From: Gemmatimonadales bacterium
GTDB taxonomy: Bacteria > Gemmatimonadota > Gemmatimonadetes > Gemmatimonadales > GWC2-71-9
Assembly: GCA_036556505.1 (NCBI GenBank)
Contig: DATBJH010000077.1
Span: 6,862-70,861 of the forward strand
Length of the DNA: 64,000 nt
Direction of reading: 5' to 3'
Under the pieces are notes generated by a model. The model saw nothing but the letters and a program-made list of their open reading frames with translations. It was not told the origin of the DNA and ran no database searches. Made by a program: the position numbers and the translations under genes. How positions within the stretch are numbered: the first letter of the stretch is position 1; each line of letters begins with the position of its first letter. Shown here piece by piece: positions 10,692 to 39,147 of this stretch.

Positions 10692-10886
10692 CGTCTTCCT
10701 CCGCCTCACTGCCCCCGATCGCCGGCACCGGCTCAACGAAAAGCGCCCGGTGCCAAAAAGACACGCGGGACGCGAGGCTTTTTAGCAGTTGTTTAACGTG
10801 GCTGCAATACGCCGCAAATGACCACGAGCTTCGGTTGTCGCCGCTACGTTAGGGCATTCCACTCGGGGGCGCAAGACCCGGAATGC

Positions 10887-12614
10887 TCACCAATCGCGGT
10901 CTCCGGTCGGCCCTCGGCTGCTCCGGCGCCCCTCGTGCGCGGTAAGCTGTTGCCGCTCCACCGCCTCCAGAAGACGACGCGCCTCGTCCGCCGTCAGCTC
11001 CTCGGCCGACTCTCCCTCGGCGCTGCCGTAACCGCCGCCCGCCATCGCGCCCACCGCCGCGTCCGGGTTTCCCTCGTAGCCGGGCACATGGTTGTCGCCC
11101 CGTCCGTAGTCGGCGTTACGGCCCTGCCCGGACGAGCCGCCGCTGGTGCGGTCGTCCCCCAGTCGGCGGAGGGCGACCTCGAGATTCCAGCGGGCTTCGG
11201 CGTCGCCGGGGGCGAGATGAAGCGCCTCCTCGTAGGCGCCGACGGCATCGAGCAGCGGTGCCGGCTCACCCGGTCGCTCCTCGGCGGCGCGGACCAAGGC
11301 GTTGCCGAGGTTGTAGAGACTTTGCTGCCGGAGGTCGGCGGCGCGGGCGGCCTGACGAAACGCGGCCACCGCCTCGTCGTAGCGCTCCAGCCGGTAAAGC
11401 GCGGCGCCCGCGTCGAACGCCAGCCGGGCACTGCTGTCGCGCTCGAGGCCGAAGCGGAAGACGTCGTAGGCCTCGGGGTAGCGGGCCTGATGGTACAGCC
11501 GCTCGCCGCGGTGGGCGGGAGAGCAGGACCCGGCCAGAAGGGTCACCACAACTGTCATCCCGAGCGTAGCGAGGGATCTTCTCTGGGCGGGCAGGATCCC
11601 TCGCTGCGCCCGGGATGACAAGGACGGCGCTCGGGATGACAGCTCGGCCAGCAGGAGCAGGACGATCATGAGACCCAGCGGCCACTGGTACCGGTCCGCC
11701 CGCTCGCTCGTCTTCCTCGCCGCGAGCGTCCGCGGCTGCACCCGGCCGAGCGCGGTCACCAGCGTCCGCAGCTCCTCGGCCCGGTCCCATCGCGCGTAGG
11801 CTCCGCCGGTCGCGGCAGCGATGGCCCTGAGCTCATCCTCCTCCAGCCGGGATACGATCACCCGGCCGAGGTGGTCCCGGTGGTAGCGTGCCTCGGTGCT
11901 GTCGGCAGGCACCGGCCCGCCACGACCGGTGCCGATGCCGACCGCGAAGACCGGCAGCTCCTGCTCGCGCAGCGCCTCGATCGCGGGCTCCAGGTTGCCC
12001 TCGCCGCTCTCTCCATCGCTCACGAGCAGCACGGCGCGGCGACCCTCCTCGCCCTCGTGCTCGAACGCGCTCGCGGCCGCGAGCAGCGCCGCGGAGACGT
12101 CGGTGGCGGGATCTCCCAGATCGTCCTGGCTGGCCGCGTCGAGAAACAGCCTGAGCGAGGCCCGGTCGGAGGTGAACGGCATCTGGAGAAACGCACTGCC
12201 GCCGAACACGACCAGCCCGACGCGGTCGCTCGGATAGGCCGAAACCACTGCCCAGGCGAGCCGTTTCGCGGTCGCCAGTCTGGTCCTCCCTTCCGTATCG
12301 CTCGTGCCCATCGAGCGAGACAGATCGAGCAGCAGGAGCAGGTCCCGGCCGGTTCGAACCATCTCGCTCTCCCGCTCGCCCAGTTGGGGGCGGGCCAGCG
12401 CCAGCATCCCGAGCCCGACCGCGGCGACCCGGAGCGCGGCGGTCGTCCGGATCCGGCGGGGGGTCGCGAGCGACGAGCCCCGACGCAGCACCGCCTCGTC
12501 GCCGAACGCTGCCAGCGCTACGCGGCGCGCGCGCTCGGCGCGGCGGACGAGCCATGTCACCAGCGTCAGCGCCGCGAGGCCCAGCGGCAGCACCCAGGGA
12601 TACGCGAAGCTCAC
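10887..12614 (-). CDS. BatB-like VWA-domain membrane protein continuous with a BatC-like TPR lipoprotein (single 575-aa ORF)
   Basis: The N-terminal half has the MIDAS motif DLSRSM and flanking TM segments. The C-terminal half has the MTVVVTLLAGSC lipobox-like start plus TPR-like repeats. The two halves are joined by sequence encoded by a palindromic repeat (11553-11641) that contains no stop codon. Confidence 0.75.
   Translation of the reverse strand: MSFAYPWVLPLGLAALTLVTWLVRRAERARRVALAAFGDEAVLRRGSSLATPRRIRTTAALRVAAVGLGMLALARPQLGERESEMVRTGRDLLLLLDLSRSMGTSDTEGRTRLATAKRLAWAVVSAYPSDRVGLVVFGGSAFLQMPFTSDRASLRLFLDAASQDDLGDPATDVSAALLAAASAFEHEGEEGRRAVLLVSDGESGEGNLEPAIEALREQELPVFAVGIGTGRGGPVPADSTEARYHRDHLGRVIVSRLEEDELRAIAAATGGAYARWDRAEELRTLVTALGRVQPRTLAARKTSERADRYQWPLGLMIVLLLLAELSSRAPSLSSRAQRGILPAQRRSLATLGMTVVVTLLAGSCSPAHRGERLYHQARYPEAYDVFRFGLERDSSARLAFDAGAALYRLERYDEAVAAFRQAARAADLRQQSLYNLGNALVRAAEERPGEPAPLLDAVGAYEEALHLAPGDAEARWNLEVALRRLGDDRTSGGSSGQGRNADYGRGDNHVPGYEGNPDAAVGAMAGGGYGSAEGESAEELTADEARRLLEAVERQQLTAHEGRRSSRGPTGDRDW
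11553..11641. repeat. REP/MITE-like palindromic element, copy 1 (TGTCATCCCGAGCGTAGCGAGGGATC ... GATCCCTCGCTGCGCCCGGGATGACA, plus an extra half-site GCGCTCGGGATGACA)
   Basis: The inverted repeat was read directly. It is related to the copies at 23817, 39011 and 50318. It lies inside the BatB/BatC ORF. Confidence 0.85.
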
Positions 12615-15442: not shown

Positions 15443-16440
15443 GGCACCGGCACCGCCTCGAGAATGCGGCGCAGCACCTCATCCGCGCCCACGCCTTCGG
15501 CGTCCGCGCGGTAGGTGAGGATGATCCGGTGCCGGAGGACGTCGAGGCCCAAGGCCTTGATGTCGTCCGGGGTGACGTAGGCGCGGCCCTGGAGGAAGGC
15601 ATGGGCCTTGGCCGCGCGGAGCAGGAAGATGGCCGCGCGTGGCGAGGCGCCGAACTCGATCAGCGGGGCGATCCCGCCCAGGCCCGCATCCGCCGGCCGC
15701 CGTGTGGCGGCGACCAGGTCGAGCACGTACTCCTTGATCCGGTCGTCGGCGTAGATCTGGTGCACCAGCCGCCGCGAGCGCAGGATCCCTTCCGGGTCGA
15801 GCACCTGACGCACCGCCGGCTCGTCACCCAGCGTCATCCGGTCCAGCACCTCCCGTTCCTCCCGCCGCTCCGGGTAGGTGACGGCCAGCTTGAACATGAA
15901 GCGGTCCACCTGCGCCTCGGGGAGCGGATAGGTCCCTTCGTGCTCGATCGGGTTCTGGGTGGCGAGCACCAGGAACAGCTCGGGCAGCGGGAAGGTGCGC
16001 CCGCCGATCGTCACCTGTTTCTCCTGCATGGCCTCCAGCAGCGCGCTCTGGACCTTGGCCGGCGCGCGGTTGATCTCGTCGGCGAGCAGGAGGTTGGTGA
16101 AGATCGGCCCCTGCTGAACCGTGAAGTCGCCGGTCCGCTGGTTGTAGATCATGGTGCCGATCAGATCGGCCGGCAGCAGATCCGGAGTGAACTGGATCCG
16201 GTGGAAGCCGGCTGAGATGGTGGCGGCGAGAGTGCGCACCGCCAGGGTCTTGGCGAGGCCGGGCACGCCCTCGAGCAGCACGTGGCCGTCCGCCAGGAGG
16301 CCGATCAACAGCCGCTCCAGCATGGCGCGTTGCCCGACGATGACCCGGCCGATCTCTTCCGTCAGCACGGCGGTCAGCCGGGCATGCTCCTCGATCTCGG
16401 CGGTGGGGAGGAGGTCCCGGCGTTCGGGGATGGAGGTCAT
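15439..16440 (-). CDS. MoxR-family AAA+ ATPase
   Basis: 333-aa ORF with Walker A (GVPGLAKT), Walker B (LLADEINRA) and a typical MoxR C-terminal region. Confidence 0.93.
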   Translation of the reverse strand: MTSIPERRDLLPTAEIEEHARLTAVLTEEIGRVIVGQRAMLERLLIGLLADGHVLLEGVPGLAKTLAVRTLAATISAGFHRIQFTPDLLPADLIGTMIYNQRTGDFTVQQGPIFTNLLLADEINRAPAKVQSALLEAMQEKQVTIGGRTFPLPELFLVLATQNPIEHEGTYPLPEAQVDRFMFKLAVTYPERREEREVLDRMTLGDEPAVRQVLDPEGILRSRRLVHQIYADDRIKEYVLDLVAATRRPADAGLGGIAPLIEFGASPRAAIFLLRAAKAHAFLQGRAYVTPDDIKALGLDVLRHRIILTYRADAEGVGADEVLRRILEAVPVP

Positions 16441-16453
16441 CGGAGAAATCTAA

Positions 16454-16485
16454 GGCGGTACGGCGGTACGGCGGTACGGCGGTAG
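16454..16485. repeat. Octamer tandem array, 4 units (GGCGGTAC x3, GGCGGTAG)
   Basis: Read directly. It lies in the divergent region between the moxR ATG (16440) and the beta-propeller gene (16557). Confidence 0.9.
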
Positions 16486-18663: not shown

Positions 18664-18809
18664 CTGACCTCCGGTGCGCTTGCGAGCGGATGGCACTGGT
18701 CTCGAGGGGGGTAAGAAGGGTGGAAAATGCAGCCTCCGGGTCCCCCGCACCAGAGGCGAAAGTCCCCTCCCACCCCTATGCAACTTCCCTGCCTGTCTAA
18801 TTTCCCCCC

Positions 18810-19847
18810 ATGCGGATCGCCGTCGTCTTCGACACCCCGTACGCCGGCTGGCACCATCCGGAGCACGAGCGCCAGATGACCAAGGAAGTGGCCGCCTGGC
18901 ACCACGACGAGCCCGAGATGGAGTACCAGATCGCCGATGCCCTCCGGGAGCGGGGTCATGAGGTGTTCCTGATCGGGGTCAGCGACGACCTCCAGTACCT
19001 GGTCGGCTGCCTGGACCAGATGCGCCCCGACCTGGTCTTCAACGCGGCGGAGGCGTTCCACGGCAACCCGGGTCTGGAGTACCTGGTCCCGGGCGTGCTG
19101 GAGGCCGAAGGGTACCCGTACACCGGGTCACCGCCGCAGGCGTTGCTGGTCTCCCGCAACAAGGCCATGAGCAAGAAGGTGCTCGCCTGGCACGACATCC
19201 GGGTGCCGGGCTTCGTTACCTGGCGCCCCGGTGAGACGCTCGAATCACGCGGCGACCTCCGCTACCCGGTGATCGTGAAGCCGCTCCAGTCGGATGCCTC
19301 GGTCGGCATCGCGCAGGCCTCCGTGGTCCAGGACGAGGCCTCCCTGCTGGAGCGGGTGACCCTGGTACACGAGCGCTTTCACCAGCCCGCCATCGCGGAG
19401 GAGTTCGTGGACGGGCGGGAGCTGTACGTCAGTGTCATCGGCAACGGCGACGAGCTCGAGATCCTCCCGATCACCGAGATGGTCTTCGACAAGCGGAAGA
19501 CCCGGCCGGAGGAGCGGATCGCCACCAAGTCGGCCAAGTGGGACGAGGACTACCGCGCCCGCAAGGGAATCCGTAACGTCTTTGCCCGCCCGATCGCGGC
19601 CAGCGTCCGGGAGCGGATCGAGGCCATCTGCCGGACCGCCTTCCGCGCCCTGTGGCTTCGCGACTACGCGCGGCTGGACGTGCGACTGGCGCCGGACGGC
19701 GAGGTCTGGTTCCTCGAGGCCAACGCCAACCCATTCATCAGCTACGGACACGACATGGCGAACGCGGCGGAGAAGGCCGGGCTGGATTACTACGGTTTCG
19801 TGCAGCGCCTGGTGGACCTGGCGATGGCCCGGCATGAGCGCGCGTAG
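18810..19847 (+). CDS. ATP-grasp enzyme, D-alanine--D-alanine ligase-like
   Basis: 345-aa ORF with MRIAVVFD... and SRNKAMSKKVL, YPVIVKP, ELYVSVIG, WFLEANANP, which are typical Ddl-family ATP-grasp blocks. Confidence 0.85.
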   Translation: MRIAVVFDTPYAGWHHPEHERQMTKEVAAWHHDEPEMEYQIADALRERGHEVFLIGVSDDLQYLVGCLDQMRPDLVFNAAEAFHGNPGLEYLVPGVLEAEGYPYTGSPPQALLVSRNKAMSKKVLAWHDIRVPGFVTWRPGETLESRGDLRYPVIVKPLQSDASVGIAQASVVQDEASLLERVTLVHERFHQPAIAEEFVDGRELYVSVIGNGDELEILPITEMVFDKRKTRPEERIATKSAKWDEDYRARKGIRNVFARPIAASVRERIEAICRTAFRALWLRDYARLDVRLAPDGEVWFLEANANPFISYGHDMANAAEKAGLDYYGFVQRLVDLAMARHERA

Positions 19848-20844: not shown

Positions 20845-22473
20845 TCACCACCACCCCGCCTTCTTCTTCACCGTGCGCTTGCCCTCCTTGAGGGCTTCCA
20901 TCGCGGCATTCCGGCCGTTCACTCCGATCACGCTCCCGCCCGGATGCGTCCCTGCGCCGCACAGCAACACGCCGGGCATCGGCGTCCGGGCGCGCAGCCG
21001 TCGGTCCCACATGTACTGGGGCAGGATCTCCCCCTGGAAGATGTGACCGCCGGTGAGGCCGACGCGCTCCTCGATGTCCGGCGGGCCCAGCACCTCCATC
21101 CCCGTCACCGCCGCCGGGATGTTGCTGCAGAAACGGCCGATCGACCGAACTACGACCTGCCCCACCTCCTCTCGGCGGCTGTTCCAGTCACCTTCGCGGA
21201 AGGCGTGGGGGACGTATTGGGCGAACACGCTCAGCGTGTGCACTCCGTCGGGGACGACGCTGCGGTCGAACACGGTGTGCAGGTACAGCTCGTTCCAGGT
21301 CTTCGGCGGAAGCACTCCCTCGTTCGCCAGACGGTGGTGCTCGCGCCATTCGTCCTTCGTGAGGGGCGTGTTCACCTGCCCGGTGTGGTGCGGCTGGCGG
21401 AGCCCCGGCCGCGCGGTGAAGTCCGGCAGCGCCGACAGCCGGAGGTTCACCTTCACCGTGATGCCCCGGGTGGGCAGCGCGCGCACCTGCCGGGCCCAGG
21501 TCCCGTCCGCCGCGTCGCCCAGGAGCCGGAGCGTGACGGTCGGGTCGGCATTGGAGATCACCTGCGGCGCCGTGATCCGCTTGCCGGACGCGAGCTCGAC
21601 TCCTTCACCGGGGAGGATACGCGCGACCGGCACCCCAGTCGCCACCACGGCGCCGAGCCCGCGGGCGATGTCGCACAGCAGGAAGGACACCATCCCCATC
21701 CCGCCTTCCACGTAGCCCCACGTCCCCGGCAGTCCGAACATCCGGCCCGAGGCGTGGTGGAACCACACCGAGGCCGTACCGGGCTCGTGCGGGCTCGCGT
21801 TGGTGCCGATGACACCTTGCCCCAGGTAGGCGAGGTGCATTCGCTCATCGTCCATGTACCGTTCGACCATCTCCACCATGGACCAGTCGAACAGGATCGC
21901 CCGGGCCTCCGCATCGCCCCGCAGCCGTCGCTCGATCTCGTCGCGGTCGGGCGCCGGGTCGAGCCACAGGTCGCCCGCACCGTCGGGGCGCAGCGCGTCG
22001 CGCAGCCGCTGCTTGGCCGCCTGCATCGCGCGCCATCCGGCGAGGTCCCCGGGGGCGAAGCGGGTGATCTCCGCCTCGCAGCGGGCATCGTCGTTCCAGA
22101 GCTGGATGCTGCTGCCGTCTTCGAACGGCACGAAGAGCCCGCCGACCGCGGGGAACCAGCGGAATCCGTGGCCGGGCAGATCGAGCTCCTGGATGACGGT
22201 TGGATGCAGCAGCCCCGCGACGTAGGCGCAGGGCGACATCCGGACGCCGGGCCAGGGCTCCTCCATGGTGCAGGCGCCGCCCACGCGATCCCTGGCCTCG
22301 AGCACCAGTACCTTGCGGCCCGCCCGCGCCAGGTAAGCGGCGCAAGTGAGCCCGTTGTGGCCGGCACCGACGATCACCGCGTCCCACTGCCTTCGGGCGA
22401 GCTCCGCCACGGGCCGCGGCAGGCCGATCCGGCCGAGGACCTCGGCGGTGGGGCTGGAGTGTGGTCGAGTCAT
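20845..22473 (-). CDS. FAD/NAD(P)-dependent oxidoreductase, phytoene desaturase (CrtI)-like family
   Basis: The ATG at 22473 gives MTRPHSS.... It has the dinucleotide-binding motif VIVGAGHNGLTCAAYLARAG. Length is 542 aa. The ORF-track N-terminal extension is translated octamer repeat and is rejected. Confidence 0.85.
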   Translation of the reverse strand: MTRPHSSPTAEVLGRIGLPRPVAELARRQWDAVIVGAGHNGLTCAAYLARAGRKVLVLEARDRVGGACTMEEPWPGVRMSPCAYVAGLLHPTVIQELDLPGHGFRWFPAVGGLFVPFEDGSSIQLWNDDARCEAEITRFAPGDLAGWRAMQAAKQRLRDALRPDGAGDLWLDPAPDRDEIERRLRGDAEARAILFDWSMVEMVERYMDDERMHLAYLGQGVIGTNASPHEPGTASVWFHHASGRMFGLPGTWGYVEGGMGMVSFLLCDIARGLGAVVATGVPVARILPGEGVELASGKRITAPQVISNADPTVTLRLLGDAADGTWARQVRALPTRGITVKVNLRLSALPDFTARPGLRQPHHTGQVNTPLTKDEWREHHRLANEGVLPPKTWNELYLHTVFDRSVVPDGVHTLSVFAQYVPHAFREGDWNSRREEVGQVVVRSIGRFCSNIPAAVTGMEVLGPPDIEERVGLTGGHIFQGEILPQYMWDRRLRARTPMPGVLLCGAGTHPGGSVIGVNGRNAAMEALKEGKRTVKKKAGWW

Positions 22474-22485
22474 GGCATGAGAATG

Positions 22486-22657
22486 GGCGGTAAGGCGGTA
22501 AGGCGGTAGGGCGGTACGGCGGTACGGGGGTACGGCGGTACGGCGGTACGTCCTTCCCACCCGACCACCTGACCGGCTGACCGCCCGGCCGGCTGACCGC
22601 CCGACCGGCTGACCGCCCGACCGCCTGCCCGCCTTACCGCCCGACCGCCCGACCGCC
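22486..22657. repeat. Inverted pair of octamer tandem arrays: 8 x GGCGGTAM (22486-22549), a short spacer, then 12 x CYGACCGS (22561-22656)
   Basis: Units were read and counted directly. The arrays occupy most of the 196-nt divergent intergenic region between 22473 and 22670. Confidence 0.9.
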
Positions 22658-22669
22658 TACTATCCCCCC

Positions 22670-23827
22670 ATGACCCTCCGGCTCTACTACACCGACTCGT
22701 ATCTGCAAGAGTTCGATGCCGCCGTCGTGGATCGCGCCGAGGGGGGCCGCCGCGTGTACCTCGACCGGACCGCATTCTACCCTGCGTCCGGCGGCCAGCC
22801 CCACGACATCGGCGCGCTCGACGGTAATCCGGTACTGGACGTGGTGGACGAGGGTGACCGTATCGCCCACCTGCTGGCCGAGCCGGTGGGTGCGGCAACG
22901 GTGCACGGGGCGGTCGACTGGCCACGGCGCTTCGATCACATGCAGCAGCACAGCGGCCAGCATCTCCTCTCGGCTGCGCTGCACGAGCTCTTCGGCCACA
23001 CTACGATCGCGGTGCACTTCGGGCGCGAGAGCTCAACGCTCGACCTGGACACGCCGGACCTGGAGCAGCCGCGCCTGGTCGAGGCGGAGGCGCGCGCGAA
23101 CGACATCGTCATCGAGAATCGGCCGATCGAGGTCGGTTTCGAGGAGGCATCGGAAGCGGCCGGACTGCGAAAGGCGTCGGTCCGAGAGGGAACGCTGCGC
23201 ATCGTGACGATCCGCGATCTCGACCGGAGCGCCTGCGGCGGCACGCACGTCCGCGCCACCGGTGAGATCGGCCCGATCCTCATTCGGAAGTCGGAGCGGG
23301 TGAAGAGGAACCTGCGCCTGGAGTTCGTCTGCGGCGCCCGGGCCGTGCGCCGCGCGCGCGCCGACCTCGATCTGCTCTCCCGGCTCGCCGTCCAGTTCTC
23401 GGCGGCGGCGGAAGAGCTCCCGACCCTGGTGGAGGCCCAGCGGGCCGAGCTCCGGGCGGCTGTGGGAGGGCGACGCGAGCTGGAAGCGAGTCTGGCCCGC
23501 TACCGCGCCCGGGAGTTGTACGACGCCGCGCCCGACGGGGTGCCGCGACGGATCGTCGTGCGGGAGGAAGAGGGACCGATCGAGCGGCTCCGTCCGCTGG
23601 CTCAGGCGATCGCGACGATGCCGCGGTCGTTGTTCGTGGGCTGGACCGTGAACCCGCCCGCCCTCGTCGTCGGCGCCTCGGAGGATTCCGGGATAAACGC
23701 CGGCATGGCCCTCAAGGCCGCGCTGGCCGGTGTAGAAGGACGGGGCGGCGGAAACGCCAGATTGGCGCAGGGAACCGCGCCGTCGGCGGCTGCAATTGAG
23801 CTGGCTGTGGGACGATTGTCACCCTGA
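22670..23827 (+). CDS. Alanyl-tRNA editing protein, AlaX-L type (tRNA synthetase class II editing/SAD domains)
   Basis: 385-aa ORF with MTLRLYYTDSYL, the zinc motifs QHSGQHLLS and CGGTHV, and a DHHA1-like C-terminus. Confidence 0.85.
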   Translation: MTLRLYYTDSYLQEFDAAVVDRAEGGRRVYLDRTAFYPASGGQPHDIGALDGNPVLDVVDEGDRIAHLLAEPVGAATVHGAVDWPRRFDHMQQHSGQHLLSAALHELFGHTTIAVHFGRESSTLDLDTPDLEQPRLVEAEARANDIVIENRPIEVGFEEASEAAGLRKASVREGTLRIVTIRDLDRSACGGTHVRATGEIGPILIRKSERVKRNLRLEFVCGARAVRRARADLDLLSRLAVQFSAAAEELPTLVEAQRAELRAAVGGRRELEASLARYRARELYDAAPDGVPRRIVVREEEGPIERLRPLAQAIATMPRSLFVGWTVNPPALVVGASEDSGINAGMALKAALAGVEGRGGGNARLAQGTAPSAAAIELAVGRLSP

Positions 23828-36315: not shown

Positions 36316-38979
36316 ATGGATTCACGTCAGCAGGATATCGCCCAGGGCCTGAGCGGCCGCTACGTCATCGAGCGCGAGCTCGGGCGCGGCGGCATGGCGA
36401 GCGTCTGGCTGGCACGGGACGTCCGTTACGACCGGATGGTCGCGCTCAAGGTGCTCCACCCGGACCTGGCAGCGACACTGGGCCCCCAGCGCTTCCTGCG
36501 CGAAATCATGCTGGCCGCCCGCCTCCAGCACCCTCATATCGTGCCGGTCTACGATTCCGGCGAGATCCCTTCCTCCCGCGCGACGGTACCGCCCATCCTG
36601 TGGTTCACGATGCCGTGGATCGAAGGCGAGTCGTTGCGCGAGCGGCTGGGACGTGAGGGACGACTTTCTCCGCCCGAGGCGGTCAGGATCGCCCGCGAGG
36701 TCGCCCGCGGCCTCCAGTACGCCCACGACCACGGCGTGATCCACCGCGACGTGAAGCCGGAGAACATCCTGCTCACCAGGGACGGGAGCACGATGGTCGC
36801 GGACTTCGGCATTGCCCGACCTGCCGGGACCGCGGGCACGGAGCATCTGACAGGGACCGGCGTCGTGATCGGCACTCCGATCTACATGAGCCCGGAGCAG
36901 GCGGTGGGAGGTGAGCTGGATCCCCGCGCGGATGTGTACTCACTCGGTTGCGTCCTGTACGAGATGCTCACCGGCGGGCCGCCGTTCGGCGGAGCGACGG
37001 TGCAGGAGGTCGTCGCTCGCCACCTGACCGAGCCGCCGCCGCTCTCCGGCACACGGGTCGCCGAAATTCCCGGCGTCCTCAAGGCCGCCCTGGGCCGGGC
37101 GCTGTCCAAGTCCCGCGACGATCGTCCGGCGACAGCCGCACAGTTCGCCGAGTCGCTCGGCAGTCAGGACGGAAGCGTGGCGATGTCGAGCCGCCGACGC
37201 GCGGCCGCGGTGGCCGCGGTCGCGGGCGCGGCCGGGCTGGCGGCCTTCGTGGCGCTCCGCGGACCGTCCGACGACGCGGGCGCGCCGACGGGTTCGTCCT
37301 CCCAAGGCACCGTGGCGTCGGGATTCGCGCGCCGCCTGACCCAGCTCACCTCGCGGGAAGGCCTGGAGGAGTGGCCGACCTGGTCCTCCGACGGGCAGCA
37401 GCTCGCTTACGTGGCCGAGGTGAACGGCTACCGCCAGCTGTTCGTGCGACCAGTCGCCGGCGGCGCGGAGCGGCAGCTTACCGACGACCCGCGGGACCAC
37501 ATCCAGCCGGCGTGGTCACCCGACGGTGCGCGCATCGCGTTCGTGCGCGGCGCTACCGCCACCGGCAAGCTCGAGCCCGACGAAGTGGACGGGTACTACT
37601 TCGAGGGAGCCGAACTGTGGAGCATTGAGCTCGGCTCGGGGGAGGCCTCCAAGCTGCTGGAGGACGGATTCAACCCCTCGTACTCGCCGGACGGGCAGCG
37701 TCTCGCCTTCGACGCCGAGCTCGCAGGAGCGCAGCGGGTCTGGGTCGCGGACACTCGCGGGCGCAACCCCCGTCAGGTGACCTCCGATTCCAGCGAGGCC
37801 GTGGTGCACACCGAGCCCCACTGGTCGCCCGACGGCTCGAGGCTGGTCTTCCGGCGTATCGAGAAGCTGAAGTCCGACATCGCCATCGTGAACCCGACGA
37901 CGCAGGCGGTCACCCGGGTGACGGACGATTACGTGGTGGACGTGTATCCGACATGGATGCCCGACGGTCGCGCGATCGTCTTCTCGTCCAGTCGCGGTGG
38001 CGGCGTCAATCTCTGGCGGGCGCGGCTCGACCAGGACGGCTCACCGAAGGGCCTGGAGCAGCTCACCACCGGAGCGGGTGACGACGTGCAGGCCTCGGTG
38101 CATCCCGATGGGCGCGAGCTCGTGTTCGCCGTCCGAGGCATCAACTCCGACCTCTGGCAGCTGCCGGTCTCGCCCGAGACGGGCCGACCGGCGGGAAACC
38201 CGACGCCCGTGCTCGGCACGACCCGGGTCGAGAGCCGCGGCACCTGGTCGCCGGACGGCCGGCAGCTCGCGTTCAATTCGGATCGTGCCGGCGAGATGAA
38301 CATCTGGGTGCTGGACTCGGCCCGACACGAGCGTCGGGTGACAGTCGGTCCCGGAGGCGATTACCAGCCCGACTGGTCGCCGGACGGCCAGGCTCTGGTG
38401 TTCTTCTCCGCCCGCGGCGGCAATACCGACATTTGGCGGGTACGACTCTCGGACACGTCGCTCACCCGCCTCACCCAGGATCCGGCGCTGGACATCAACC
38501 CGGCGAATTCACCGGACGGACAGCGGATCGCCTTCGTCTCCGACCGGAGTGGACGGTTCGAGGTCTGGGTGATGCAGGCCGACGGCACCGCACAGCAGCA
38601 GGTAGCCTCGGTGGGCTGCTGGGGTCACTTCGTGGCCTGGACCACGGACAGCAGGGCAATCGTCTTTCGAGGCGAGCGGGACCGACAGATGCAGATCTAT
38701 CGGGTCGACGTCGCGAGCGGCGCGCTCACGCCGCTGCCACCCGTGCGCAGCGGCGGCCACATGTCGTTCTCGCCCTCGCAGTCGGTGATCATGGACGTCA
38801 ACAGCCACAAGGTGATCTGGGCCCATCCCGTCAACGGCGGGCCGCCCTACGAGATCTACCAGTTCCCGGACCCGGATGTGCGCATCGACTACCCGCGCTG
38901 GTCGCGAGACGGGCGGCTGGTCGTGTTCGACCGTACGGCACCCCGGGGAGCGGATCTGTGGACGTTGGAGGGGTTCTAG
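36316..38979 (+). CDS. Ser/Thr protein kinase fused to TolB-like (WD40-like) beta-propeller repeats
   Basis: 887-aa ORF. The kinase domain has HRDVKPENILL, DFGIA and GTPIYMSPE. A TM segment follows, then about 10 repeats containing the WSPDG motif. Confidence 0.9.
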   Translation: MDSRQQDIAQGLSGRYVIERELGRGGMASVWLARDVRYDRMVALKVLHPDLAATLGPQRFLREIMLAARLQHPHIVPVYDSGEIPSSRATVPPILWFTMPWIEGESLRERLGREGRLSPPEAVRIAREVARGLQYAHDHGVIHRDVKPENILLTRDGSTMVADFGIARPAGTAGTEHLTGTGVVIGTPIYMSPEQAVGGELDPRADVYSLGCVLYEMLTGGPPFGGATVQEVVARHLTEPPPLSGTRVAEIPGVLKAALGRALSKSRDDRPATAAQFAESLGSQDGSVAMSSRRRAAAVAAVAGAAGLAAFVALRGPSDDAGAPTGSSSQGTVASGFARRLTQLTSREGLEEWPTWSSDGQQLAYVAEVNGYRQLFVRPVAGGAERQLTDDPRDHIQPAWSPDGARIAFVRGATATGKLEPDEVDGYYFEGAELWSIELGSGEASKLLEDGFNPSYSPDGQRLAFDAELAGAQRVWVADTRGRNPRQVTSDSSEAVVHTEPHWSPDGSRLVFRRIEKLKSDIAIVNPTTQAVTRVTDDYVVDVYPTWMPDGRAIVFSSSRGGGVNLWRARLDQDGSPKGLEQLTTGAGDDVQASVHPDGRELVFAVRGINSDLWQLPVSPETGRPAGNPTPVLGTTRVESRGTWSPDGRQLAFNSDRAGEMNIWVLDSARHERRVTVGPGGDYQPDWSPDGQALVFFSARGGNTDIWRVRLSDTSLTRLTQDPALDINPANSPDGQRIAFVSDRSGRFEVWVMQADGTAQQQVASVGCWGHFVAWTTDSRAIVFRGERDRQMQIYRVDVASGALTPLPPVRSGGHMSFSPSQSVIMDVNSHKVIWAHPVNGGPPYEIYQFPDPDVRIDYPRWSRDGRLVVFDRTAPRGADLWTLEGF

Positions 38980-39147
38980 GCGGTCGGGCGGTCGGGCGGT
39001 CGAAGCTGCCTGTCATTCACGAGGAGCGCAAGCGACGAGTGATCTTCTGCCCAATGTCGAATCATCCGCGAGGGAGATCCCTCGCCTCGCTCGGGATGAC
39101 AGAAGGCGCTCGGTCCGGCTGACCGCCCGACCGCCCGACCGCCCGCC
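38979..39147. repeat. Composite nested inverted repeat: 3 x GGCGGTCG, then REP-like palindrome copy 3 (39011-39101), then CTGACCGC CCGACCGC CCGACCGC CCGCC
   Basis: Read directly. It begins at the last base of the kinase TAG and ends one base before the FtsH-type gene's stop (39148-50). Confidence 0.9.

Follow-up and report, generated by a model that had tools for sequence, protein, structure and literature searches.

Octamer arrays between the FAD-oxidoreductase and AlaX genes

The stretch of DNA analysed here (the window) comprises 64 kb of contig DATBJH010000077.1 from a Gemmatimonadales bacterium and has a GC content of 69.8%. At positions 22474-22669, an intergenic region of 196 nt separates two divergently transcribed genes, a minus-strand gene encoding a 542-aa FAD-dependent oxidoreductase and a plus-strand AlaX-type gene (encoding a tRNA_SAD/DHHA1 protein), whose ATG lies at 22670. 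This divergent region is filled by an inverted pair of tandem arrays of an 8-nt unit (22486-22657). The original prediction had proposed such a pair, and both the reading of the sequence and Tandem Repeats Finder bear it out. The predicted distance of 12 nt between the right array and the ATG and the predicted length of the intergenic region are likewise correct.

The arrays are oriented by their G-rich strand, the 5′ end of which is referred to below as the tail and the 3′ end as the head. In the left arm (22486-22549), the G-rich strand is the plus strand and the eight tandem octamers, GGCGGT(AA,AA,AG,AC,AC,AC,AC,AC), are in order GGCGGTAA, GGCGGTAA, GGCGGTAG, GGCGGTAC, GGCGGTAC, GGGGGTAC, GGCGGTAC and GGCGGTAC, exactly as had been listed. 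The palindrome centre (22550-22561), to which no strand is assigned, is about 10-12 nt long and reads GTCCTTCCCAC / GTCCTTCCCACC. In the right arm (22562-22657), the G-rich strand is the minus strand. Its twelve octamers, C(C/T)GACCG(C/G) as read on the plus strand, are CCGACCAC, CTGACCGG, CTGACCGC, CCGGCCGG, CTGACCGC and CCGACCGG, followed by CTGACCGC, CCGACCGC, CTGCCCGC, CTTACCGC, CCGACCGC and CCGACCGC. The predicted count of twelve units thus stands, while the predicted consensus CYGACCGS does not cover four of the twelve. The tail of the left arm abuts the -10 hexamer of the minus-strand oxidoreductase gene and the tail of the right arm abuts the -10 box of the AlaX gene.

Tandem Repeats Finder reports the left array as 8.1 copies of period 8 with 92% match and the right array as 12.2 copies of period 8 with 76% match, the latter being also called as 16- and 32-nt super-units. 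Across the window, GGCGGTNNGGCGGT with at most one mismatch was found 23 times for 1.87 matches expected, and none of 100 shuffled sequences gave more than 6. For the relaxed core (GGCGGNNN)x3, 18 matches were found for 0.31 expected, all 18 lying inside the five arrays of this family that the window contains. A period scan of the 64 kb detected no period-8 run besides these octamer-family arrays. It is thus confirmed that the arrays at 22486-22657 are real and far beyond chance. As single-stranded DNA, the pair folds with -63.1 kcal/mol versus -47.7 kcal/mol for shuffled sequences (z = -4.5).

Promoters of the two divergent genes

Neither gene has a Shine-Dalgarno sequence, and in both a hexamer resembling a -10 box lies 6 nt before the ATG. 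On the plus strand, the AlaX gene is preceded by TACTAT (22658-22663) and CCCCCC, followed by the ATG (feature 22658-22672), and on the minus strand the oxidoreductase gene (feature 22471-22485) shows CATTCT (reverse complement of 22480-22485), CATGCC and the ATG (reverse complement of 22471-22473). A scan of the region for sigma-70 -35/-10 promoters gave no match and a scan for U-tract terminators found none. The AlaX hexamer and its spacing are kept in eight relatives, including two in which no array touches the promoter (L202 and L198/199, see below). In the AlaX orthologues, the hexamer TACTAT is followed by the spacers CCCCCC, CCCCGC, CCCCTC, CCCTTC or CCGATC, TACAAT by CCCCTC and TATTCT by CCCTCC or CCCTCGC. 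The same arrangement, TAnnnT followed by a C-rich spacer of 6-7 nt and ATG, again with no Shine-Dalgarno sequence, is found in the window at 18810 (18795-18812), 16440 (16438-16452), 5631 and 29611, and at many array-adjacent genes elsewhere. TAnnnT-N6-7-ATG looks like a general promoter and start signal in the window genome and its relatives.

Both promoters are probably leaderless and of a -10-only type, as suggested by this conservation and by the leaderless genes of other high-GC phyla. With -10-only promoters, the DNA between the two hexamers would be dispensable for the core promoter, so that the element can fill it. The arrays had originally been thought to leave almost no ordinary promoter space. 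This is no paradox, since the putative -10-only promoters are conserved with or without arrays. The suggestion that the arrays alter promoter geometry is not supported for the core promoter, because they end at the upstream edge of the -10 hexamer, no -35 is present and the promoter is kept where the array is missing (L202, L198). The arrays were also considered as suppliers of a -35 element and this was rejected, the candidate -35 hexamers TACCGC and TTACCG being poor matches and the promoter persisting without arrays. Judged by the places where its copies lie, the element is not a promoter device, the same element being found at stop codons and tRNA ends.

History of the locus in relatives

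The AlaX proteins closest to that of the window belong to Gemmatimonadales, and an exact-protein look-up of the window AlaX found none on record. Relatives in which the oxidoreductase and AlaX genes diverge in the same order form a series. In two species whose AlaX proteins are 82% and 78% identical (L203 and L204), the intergenic regions are 93 and 84 nt long, respectively, and consist of four units and about 3.5-4.5 units with no spacer, the arms meeting at GGCGGTAC/CGCC in a perfect palindrome on GTAC. Two further loci (L200 and L201, AlaX 81% and 79%) contain three units, a TGTC-type repetitive extragenic palindromic (REP) dimer and then two to four units. At L202 (81%), four units are present on the left side only, and at L205 (77%) only a degenerate left array is found. 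The contig of L197, whose AlaX is 99% identical, ends within the right array (L197:1-18), 18 nt from the AlaX ATG. No array is found at L198/199 (85%), where the upstream gene is a different one, nor beside the more distant AlaX homologues (50-69%) recovered in a metagenome scan with AlaX.

Unit counts at the orthologous loci are 8/4/4/4/3/3 for the left arm and 12/4-5/3-4/4/about 2/0 for the right arm, the 8+12 form of the window being the largest. Copy-number variation, one of the possibilities raised in the original prediction, is borne out between related species, with 0 to 12 units at orthologous loci. This series indicates that the element is old at the AlaX site and vertically inherited. 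The array copy numbers of metagenome-assembled genomes (MAGs) need caution, since contigs break inside arrays.

Such variation is what a contingency promoter would produce, in which slipped-strand gain or loss of units would switch one or both genes within a population. Copy number differs not only between species at the AlaX locus, as does the distance between the start sites (about 95 to about 198 bp), but also between samples at the PF05635 cassettes described below, and short-read contigs break in arrays (L197). Phase-variable simple sequence repeat loci likewise carry a short-unit tract beside promoters, with unit numbers differing between genomes. They differ from the AlaX tract, which lies upstream of a -10-only promoter instead of between -35 and -10 or in an open reading frame (ORF), so that unit number leaves the core promoter unaltered. 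A switch of this kind is very unlikely here, given also the housekeeping-type nature of the flanking genes (AlaX editing protein and FAD oxidoreductase) and the location of the family mostly at gene 3′ ends.

A dispersed family of oriented arrays in Gemmatimonadales

A scan with (GGCGGTAC)x3, restricted to one genome per species, returned at least 116 loci. The array statistics presented here rest on the matches listed. Because the array served as the query, every locus counted was selected for having one, and the numbers should be read as indicative and not as a census. Coding calls at the array flanks were made with a crude classifier based on GC content at third codon positions (GC3), and the gene context of array pairs with a GC3-based classifier using longer windows. 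Among the matches listed, 64 are located in Gemmatimonadota MAGs, often several per MAG, and most of the remaining ones are arrays that occur singly in Streptomyces and further high-GC actinobacteria.

The arm unit is the octamer GGCGGTNN (GGCGG-T-NN), in which GGCGG never varies, the next T is nearly constant, being replaced by A or G in some arrays, and the last two positions are variable. Arrays contain 2-16 units, with a mode of four (40 of the 110 Gemmatimonadota arrays), and the commonest form, (GGCGGTAC)x3 + GGCGGTAG (AC-AC-AC-AG), recurs across many unrelated loci. The head-end unit is TAG in 24 of the 110 arrays versus 18 of 364 internal units. When two arrays lie at most 250 nt apart, they are arranged head-to-head in 29 cases, that is with the G-rich strand running 5′ to 3′ toward the centre from each side, in the same direction in 11 cases and tail-to-tail in none. 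Paired arms share the same main NN variant more often than expected (17/29 versus 12.5, P ~0.01). Spacers between arms measure 0-204 nt, and their sequences show no relationship from one locus to another, hence the idea of a conserved core between the arms was rejected.

The two ends of an array have very different surroundings. Coding sequence begins within 15 nt of the tail in 67 of 102 arrays (39 gene ends and 28 gene starts) and within the same distance of the head in 16 of 104, an asymmetry absent from the non-Gemmatimonadota matches listed (24/55 versus 17/50). Of 35 arrays located at gene 3′ ends, 23 overlap the stop codon or begin no more than 4 nt from it, and in several cases the stop codon is part of the array. 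The start codon is 9-15 nt away for 15 of the 41 arrays at gene 5′ ends, a distance that corresponds to the -10 hexamer plus about 6 nt. The AlaX locus is the sole divergent-promoter case among about 14 independent pairs.

Several individual loci are informative. At L010:4355-4620, within a cluster of the order Thr-Tyr-Gly-Thr, a pair occupies exactly the spacer that separates tRNA-Tyr from tRNA-Gly, leaving 1 nt to each mature end, and another, 9-nt purine-rich repeat follows tRNA-Gly. Being located inside a tRNA cluster, this pair must be transcribed and cannot be a full terminator. A gene for a Y-family DNA polymerase (IMS + IMS_C; L048:4876-4907 and L085:2163-2226) also contains an array, which lies in its C-terminal linker, is in frame and is translated as GGTAVRRY. 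This array counts four units in one species and eight in the other, the frame being preserved via a compensating length change downstream. In an orthologous set of four species (L032, L034, L074 and L115), arrays are present at both gene boundaries and the intervening sequence is replaced. In IMG/VR, only three viral contigs contain (GGCGGTAC)n (L206:14205-14300, L208:6-125 and L209:11002-11097), two of them with long arrays, of 12-15 units, at the ends of the sequences retrieved. A search of the literature on Gemmatimonadetes repeats found nothing, and searches by sequence string gave only primers.

Two models of origin were confronted with these data. A transposable element of the miniature inverted-repeat type was rejected, as the outer flanks of the pairs contain no consistent direct repeat that would represent a target-site duplication; only 15 of the 110 arrays are preceded by a TA, for which the TA of the unit itself can account. 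The second model is an ordinary microsatellite or compositional by-product, i.e., the chance expansion of a slippage-prone GC-rich octamer in neutral DNA. The single (GGCGGTAC)n arrays of Streptomyces, Kribbella and other high-GC genomes, which follow no polarity rule, would agree with it, and blocks of identical variants within arrays point to local slippage. As an account of the Gemmatimonadales arrays it is very improbable, in view of the many loci per genome, the 29:0 excess of head-to-head pairs, the four-unit module, the flush abutment and the orthologous conservation, and all period-8 arrays of the window belong to one family.

Gap-free arrays of short units are familiar from DNA-binding proteins: upstream of promoters, the 8-bp met-boxes of MetJ and the 7-bp heptads of omega form arrays of 2-10 units that occur in either orientation. 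The octamer family shares the contiguous short periodicity with these systems. It differs in that the met-box is itself palindromic and the octamer unit is not, and in that the octamer arrays are located genome-wide at gene and tRNA ends. The nearest published architecture is found in Geobacter metallireducens, where class 1 sites consist of GTTGCTYN x4 and form 24 pairs on opposite strands at variable distance, and classes 2-3 have units of 7-9 nt (PMC2700814). The octamer family likewise shows, in its modal form, four tandem octamers, with opposite-strand pairs and an intergenic location. Unit sequence and phylum differ and, the unit sequences being unrelated, common descent is not shown. 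The presence of other mobile DNA at the pairs is a further common point, the Geobacter sites often having ISGme8/9, of the IS110 and IS481 families, between or beside them. The authors of that study proposed binding of IHF/HU or of a global regulator; no analysis of abutment, polarity or orthology was published (PMC2700814).

By analogy, the octamer arrays could be operators or nucleoid-protein sites at which a small protein binds GGCGG at 8-bp spacing, polymerises and insulates or co-regulates the flanking genes. An invariant GGCGG with a nearly invariant T and two free positions, a discrete four-unit module (32 bp, ~3 helical turns) with a distinct end unit and the retention of arrays at orthologous sites while spacers turn over would all suit a bound protein, as would the interpretation given to the paired four-octamer sites of Geobacter (PMC2700814). 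We nevertheless regard this as unlikely. No protein emerged as a candidate, and a distribution that extends equally to stop codons, tRNA ends and the inside of an ORF does not resemble that of operators. In array-less relatives (L202 and L198) the AlaX promoter is retained and presumably functional, and the number of units at one locus varies from 0 to 12.

Centres of the palindromes

Two kinds of sequence recur between the heads of paired arrays. The first is a REP-like repeat, TGTCAYCCYGAGCG-N-AGCGARGG(ATC/GCC), present in about 60 copies in 519 kb and usually as an inverted dimer, of which 19 copies lie within 40 nt of an array head. In the window, it is found at 11554, 13618(-), 23818 (directly after the AlaX stop codon), 39012, 39100(-) and 52361(-). 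A search of Rfam found no family for the TGTCAYCCYGAGCG-type repeat. Both its tag and its form recall the REP superfamily tagged by CGTC/TGTC (PMC3733652).

The second is a gene of the PF05635 family (23S rRNA intervening-sequence protein), which was found between head-to-head arrays at L008:6289-6821, L076:5957-6538, L020:1-362, L062:6224-6808 and L210-L212. In L008, L020, L062 and L076, it encodes a protein of about 121 aa that scores with PF05635 and TIGR02436 (four-helix bundle protein) and weakly as Avd-like. Each array-enclosed PF05635 gene has its own TACTAT-N6-ATG and a stop codon 1-4 nt from the far arm, and in L008 and L076 the surrounding arms are 38-45 nt long and 92-98% complementary. 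A tblastn search found no PF05635 gene in the window, and the copy at the AlaX locus has the same kind of arms around a centre of 10-12 nt without an ORF.

The association is not restricted to loci found through the arrays. When a homologue was picked by protein sequence alone (P0177), all three contigs with DNA showed the array-gene-array form, (GGCGGTAA)7-13 ... TACTAT-GAATAC-ATG - gene - TGA - (TTACCGCC)n. Gemmatimonadales PF05635 genes are thus bracketed by arrays at four of four seeded loci and in three of three cases of this unbiased look-up. The longest called ORFs, of 146-183 aa, belong to seven homologues, of which five have a GGTAVRRY-type peptide upstream, one has PPYRRT downstream and one only a partial PPYR downstream, the GGTAVRRY and PPYRRT peptides being translations of arrays. 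Many PF05635 homologues are located on very short contigs, and the number of units around the cassettes differs between samples, from 7 to 13. Of three sister samples, one (L211:36-902) has the cassette turned around with respect to an adjacent DsbA-like gene when set against L210:1-846 and L212, the cassette of L210 and L211 being 100% identical over 539 nt and the DsbA-like gene 99% identical. Either the segment between the arms has truly inverted, or the assembly is ambiguous at inverted repeats.

A similar organisation is found outside Gemmatimonadales. Acidobacterial PF05635 genes also run into short tandem arrays, made of other 7- or 8-nt units, and their C-terminal tails EEPKNRRT, RETRNEKRET and KNQxPxT imply units of 8 or 7 nt. 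In four contigs from other soil lineages, whose AlaX proteins are 52-59% identical, arrays of still other units were observed. These are (GAAGAACC)n / (GGTTCTTC)n next to a PF05635 gene where a contig ends (L143:1190-1255), an empty head-to-head pair TTGGTGGG/CCACCAAT that begins directly after a stop codon (L168:2296-2423), a second empty head-to-head pair GACGCGGA/TCCGCGTC (L172:2886-2952) and a single short array of the CCGTTAGG type (L131:1815-1841).

Inverted short-unit arrays might thus be the termini of widespread, unrecognised cassettes resembling the intervening sequences (IVS) of rRNA, with PF05635 (S23p/Avd-like) as their sole gene. The arrays would then be the sites of action of that protein, or of a recruited host enzyme, in insertion, inversion or RNA processing, and the pairs without an ORF would be non-autonomous. 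We put this forward tentatively, as a doubtful but real possibility.

The polarity of the arrays also calls to mind Chi, which is recognised in one orientation only and approached from its 3′ side. Should the octamer or its GGCGG be recognised by RecBCD/AddAB from the 3′ side, head-to-head arrays would stop degradation that sets out from breaks in a fragile centre before the flanking genes are reached. The G-strand 3′ ends do face the centre, with genes beyond the 5′ ends, the centres are palindromic and contain turnover-prone DNA, and the unrelated lineage L168 has the same architecture built from GTTGGTGG, which we take to fit the Chi-like consensus GNTGGTGG. A Chi-like function is all the same extremely improbable: outside arrays, the octamer has three copies in 64 kb versus about five expected (a hand estimate) and no strand skew, and the octamers of other lineages (GAAGAACC, GACGCGGA) are not G-rich.

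Other arrays and features of the window

All five octamer-family arrays of the window are intergenic. Equal frequency inside coding DNA, which had been raised as a sign of simple compositional bias, was not observed, the window arrays being essentially absent from coding sequence. Besides the AlaX pair, Tandem Repeats Finder and the sequence give a single canonical four-unit module, (GGCGGTAC)x3 + GGCGGTAG, on the plus strand at 16454-16485. Its tail is separated by 1 nt from TAGATT (minus strand, 16447-16452), the -10 box of a MoxR AAA ATPase gene with its ATG at 16440.

The two remaining arrays form a second head-to-head pair between convergent genes. The left arm (38979-39002, plus strand, GGCGGTCG x3) begins with the final G of the stop codon, TAG, of a Ser/Thr kinase-PD40 gene, and the right arm (39120-39145, minus strand, GACCGCCC x3 as read on the plus strand) ends 4 nt short of the stop codon (39148) of a minus-strand FtsH gene. 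Between the arms lies a TGTC-tagged REP-like hairpin dimer, CTGTCATTCACGAGG... / ...CTCGGGATGACAG (39012-39110, no strand assigned). The pair at 38979-39145 folds with -111 versus -79 kcal/mol (z = -7). For either array pair, Rfam gave no family at E<=1 and only spurious miRNA-hairpin matches far below the gathering score. A gene-centred pairing of arrays was rejected, as no gene of the window has arrays at both of its own ends.

An unrelated observation concerns a SAM_alpha riboswitch (Rfam RF00521) at 10762-10835 on the minus strand (42.2 bits for a gathering score of 36). It is located upstream of a gene encoding a pyridoxal phosphate (PLP)-dependent enzyme (PALP) and is unexpected in a Gemmatimonadales-like genome. 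The SAM_alpha family was described for Alphaproteobacteria.

Comparison with REP elements and rRNA intervening sequences

REPs lie less than 20 bp from ORF 3′ ends, mostly as one dimer type, and are sometimes found in target palindromes or repair genes (PMC3733652). Their GTAG- and CGTC-tagged forms (PMC3733652), the bacterial interspersed mosaic elements (BIMEs) and the REP doublets that form hairpins (REPINs; PMC3116915) have much in common with the octamer family, which is likewise lineage-specific, high-copy and extragenic. In both, inverted doublets (with REPs up to ~100 bp apart) can fold into one large hairpin, copies lie near ORF 3′ ends and most commonly between co-directional or convergent genes, persistence at orthologous sites is vertical and occasional copies reside within target palindromes or inside repair genes, the Y-family polymerase gene in the case of the octamer family. 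They differ in the building block, which is a self-folding stem-loop of 20-40 nt in REPs and a non-palindromic 8-nt tandem unit in the octamer family, where only the pair forms a hairpin. GTAG does appear at the head-end unit (24/110 arrays) but not beside a stem-loop. In addition, the spacer of octamer pairs is unconstrained (0-204 nt), and true TGTC-type REPs exist separately, inside pairs. No REP-associated tyrosine transposase (RAYT, Y1) or other transposase was found in the window or beside the arrays at the loci examined.

The IVS of 23S rRNA consist of an S23p (PF05635) ORF within inverted repeats, with a 28-bp stem cut by RNase III, and are considered selfish elements whose mobility is unknown (PMC4990558). 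The array-bounded PF05635 cassettes share this anatomy with the IVS of Coxiella and Leptospira (PMC4990558), having a stem of ~28-45 bp and an insertion at the hairpin tip. They differ in that octamer copies are located between protein or tRNA genes and not in rRNA, that their repeats are tandem octamers and that most copies, including the one at the AlaX locus, have no ORF. On these sequence features, the element is best filed with REP- and IVS-like intergenic repeats, of which it would represent a lineage-wide octamer-array form.

A model for the AlaX element

We consider it probable that the feature at the AlaX locus is an expanded copy of a palindromic intergenic repeat dispersed in Gemmatimonadales, REP/BIME- or IVS-like in nature, whose arms vary in length by slippage and which is untranscribed filler at this site. 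The basic form is a palindrome of 4+4 units on GTAC, with outer ends flush with a stop codon, a mature tRNA end or a -10 hexamer, and the comparison of relatives shows that the lineage of the window enlarged the arms to 8 and 12 units, presumably by slipped-strand or block (16/32-nt) duplication. Where copies are transcribed, after stop codons or in the spacer of a tRNA operon, the arms would pair as a long stem comparable to a REP/BIME or to an IVS cut by RNase III. Such stems may punctuate or stabilise transcripts through processing, 3′-end protection or partial termination. The centre of the palindrome would be a favoured landing site for REP dimers and PF05635 genes.

At the AlaX locus, both promoters would fire outward from the outer edges of the element, which would then be part of neither mRNA and be tolerated as filler. 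Its likely effect here would be limited to the distance between the start sites, about 95 bp in the 4+4 form versus about 198 bp in the window, and to supercoil-dependent local structure. In the 4+4 form, at about 95 bp, two polymerases would compete for space.

A number of points weigh against this model. About half of the arrays are unpaired, and the arms at the AlaX locus are only about 6/8 complementary, the partial complementarity noted in the original prediction being borne out by the fold (z = -4.5); the drift of the right arm to TCG/TCA units has lowered the complementarity of the arms. The flush outer abutment is not accounted for by simple slippage. Neither target-site duplications nor an associated transposase were found in the window and at the loci examined. 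The RNA-stem function of the arrays is something that we purely infer, and at the AlaX locus, where the element is upstream of both predicted start sites, an RNA role cannot explain its retention.

Significance

With its defined orientation and its position within a few bases of gene boundaries, the repeat, taken together with TAnnnT-N6-ATG, gives practical rules for the calling of gene starts and ends in a poorly studied phylum. The arrays also account for breaks in contigs, and possibly for errors of orientation, when metagenomes are assembled from short reads. For the AlaX locus itself, the outcome is mostly reassuring, the feature being probably an overgrown common element in DNA that neither promoter needs. 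More broadly, the octamer family joins the REP-like palindromes, the paired octamers of Geobacter and the rRNA IVS with S23p/PF05635. The link to the PF05635 cassettes is the part most worth following: if it is causal, the function of IVS and S23p would become directly testable outside rRNA.

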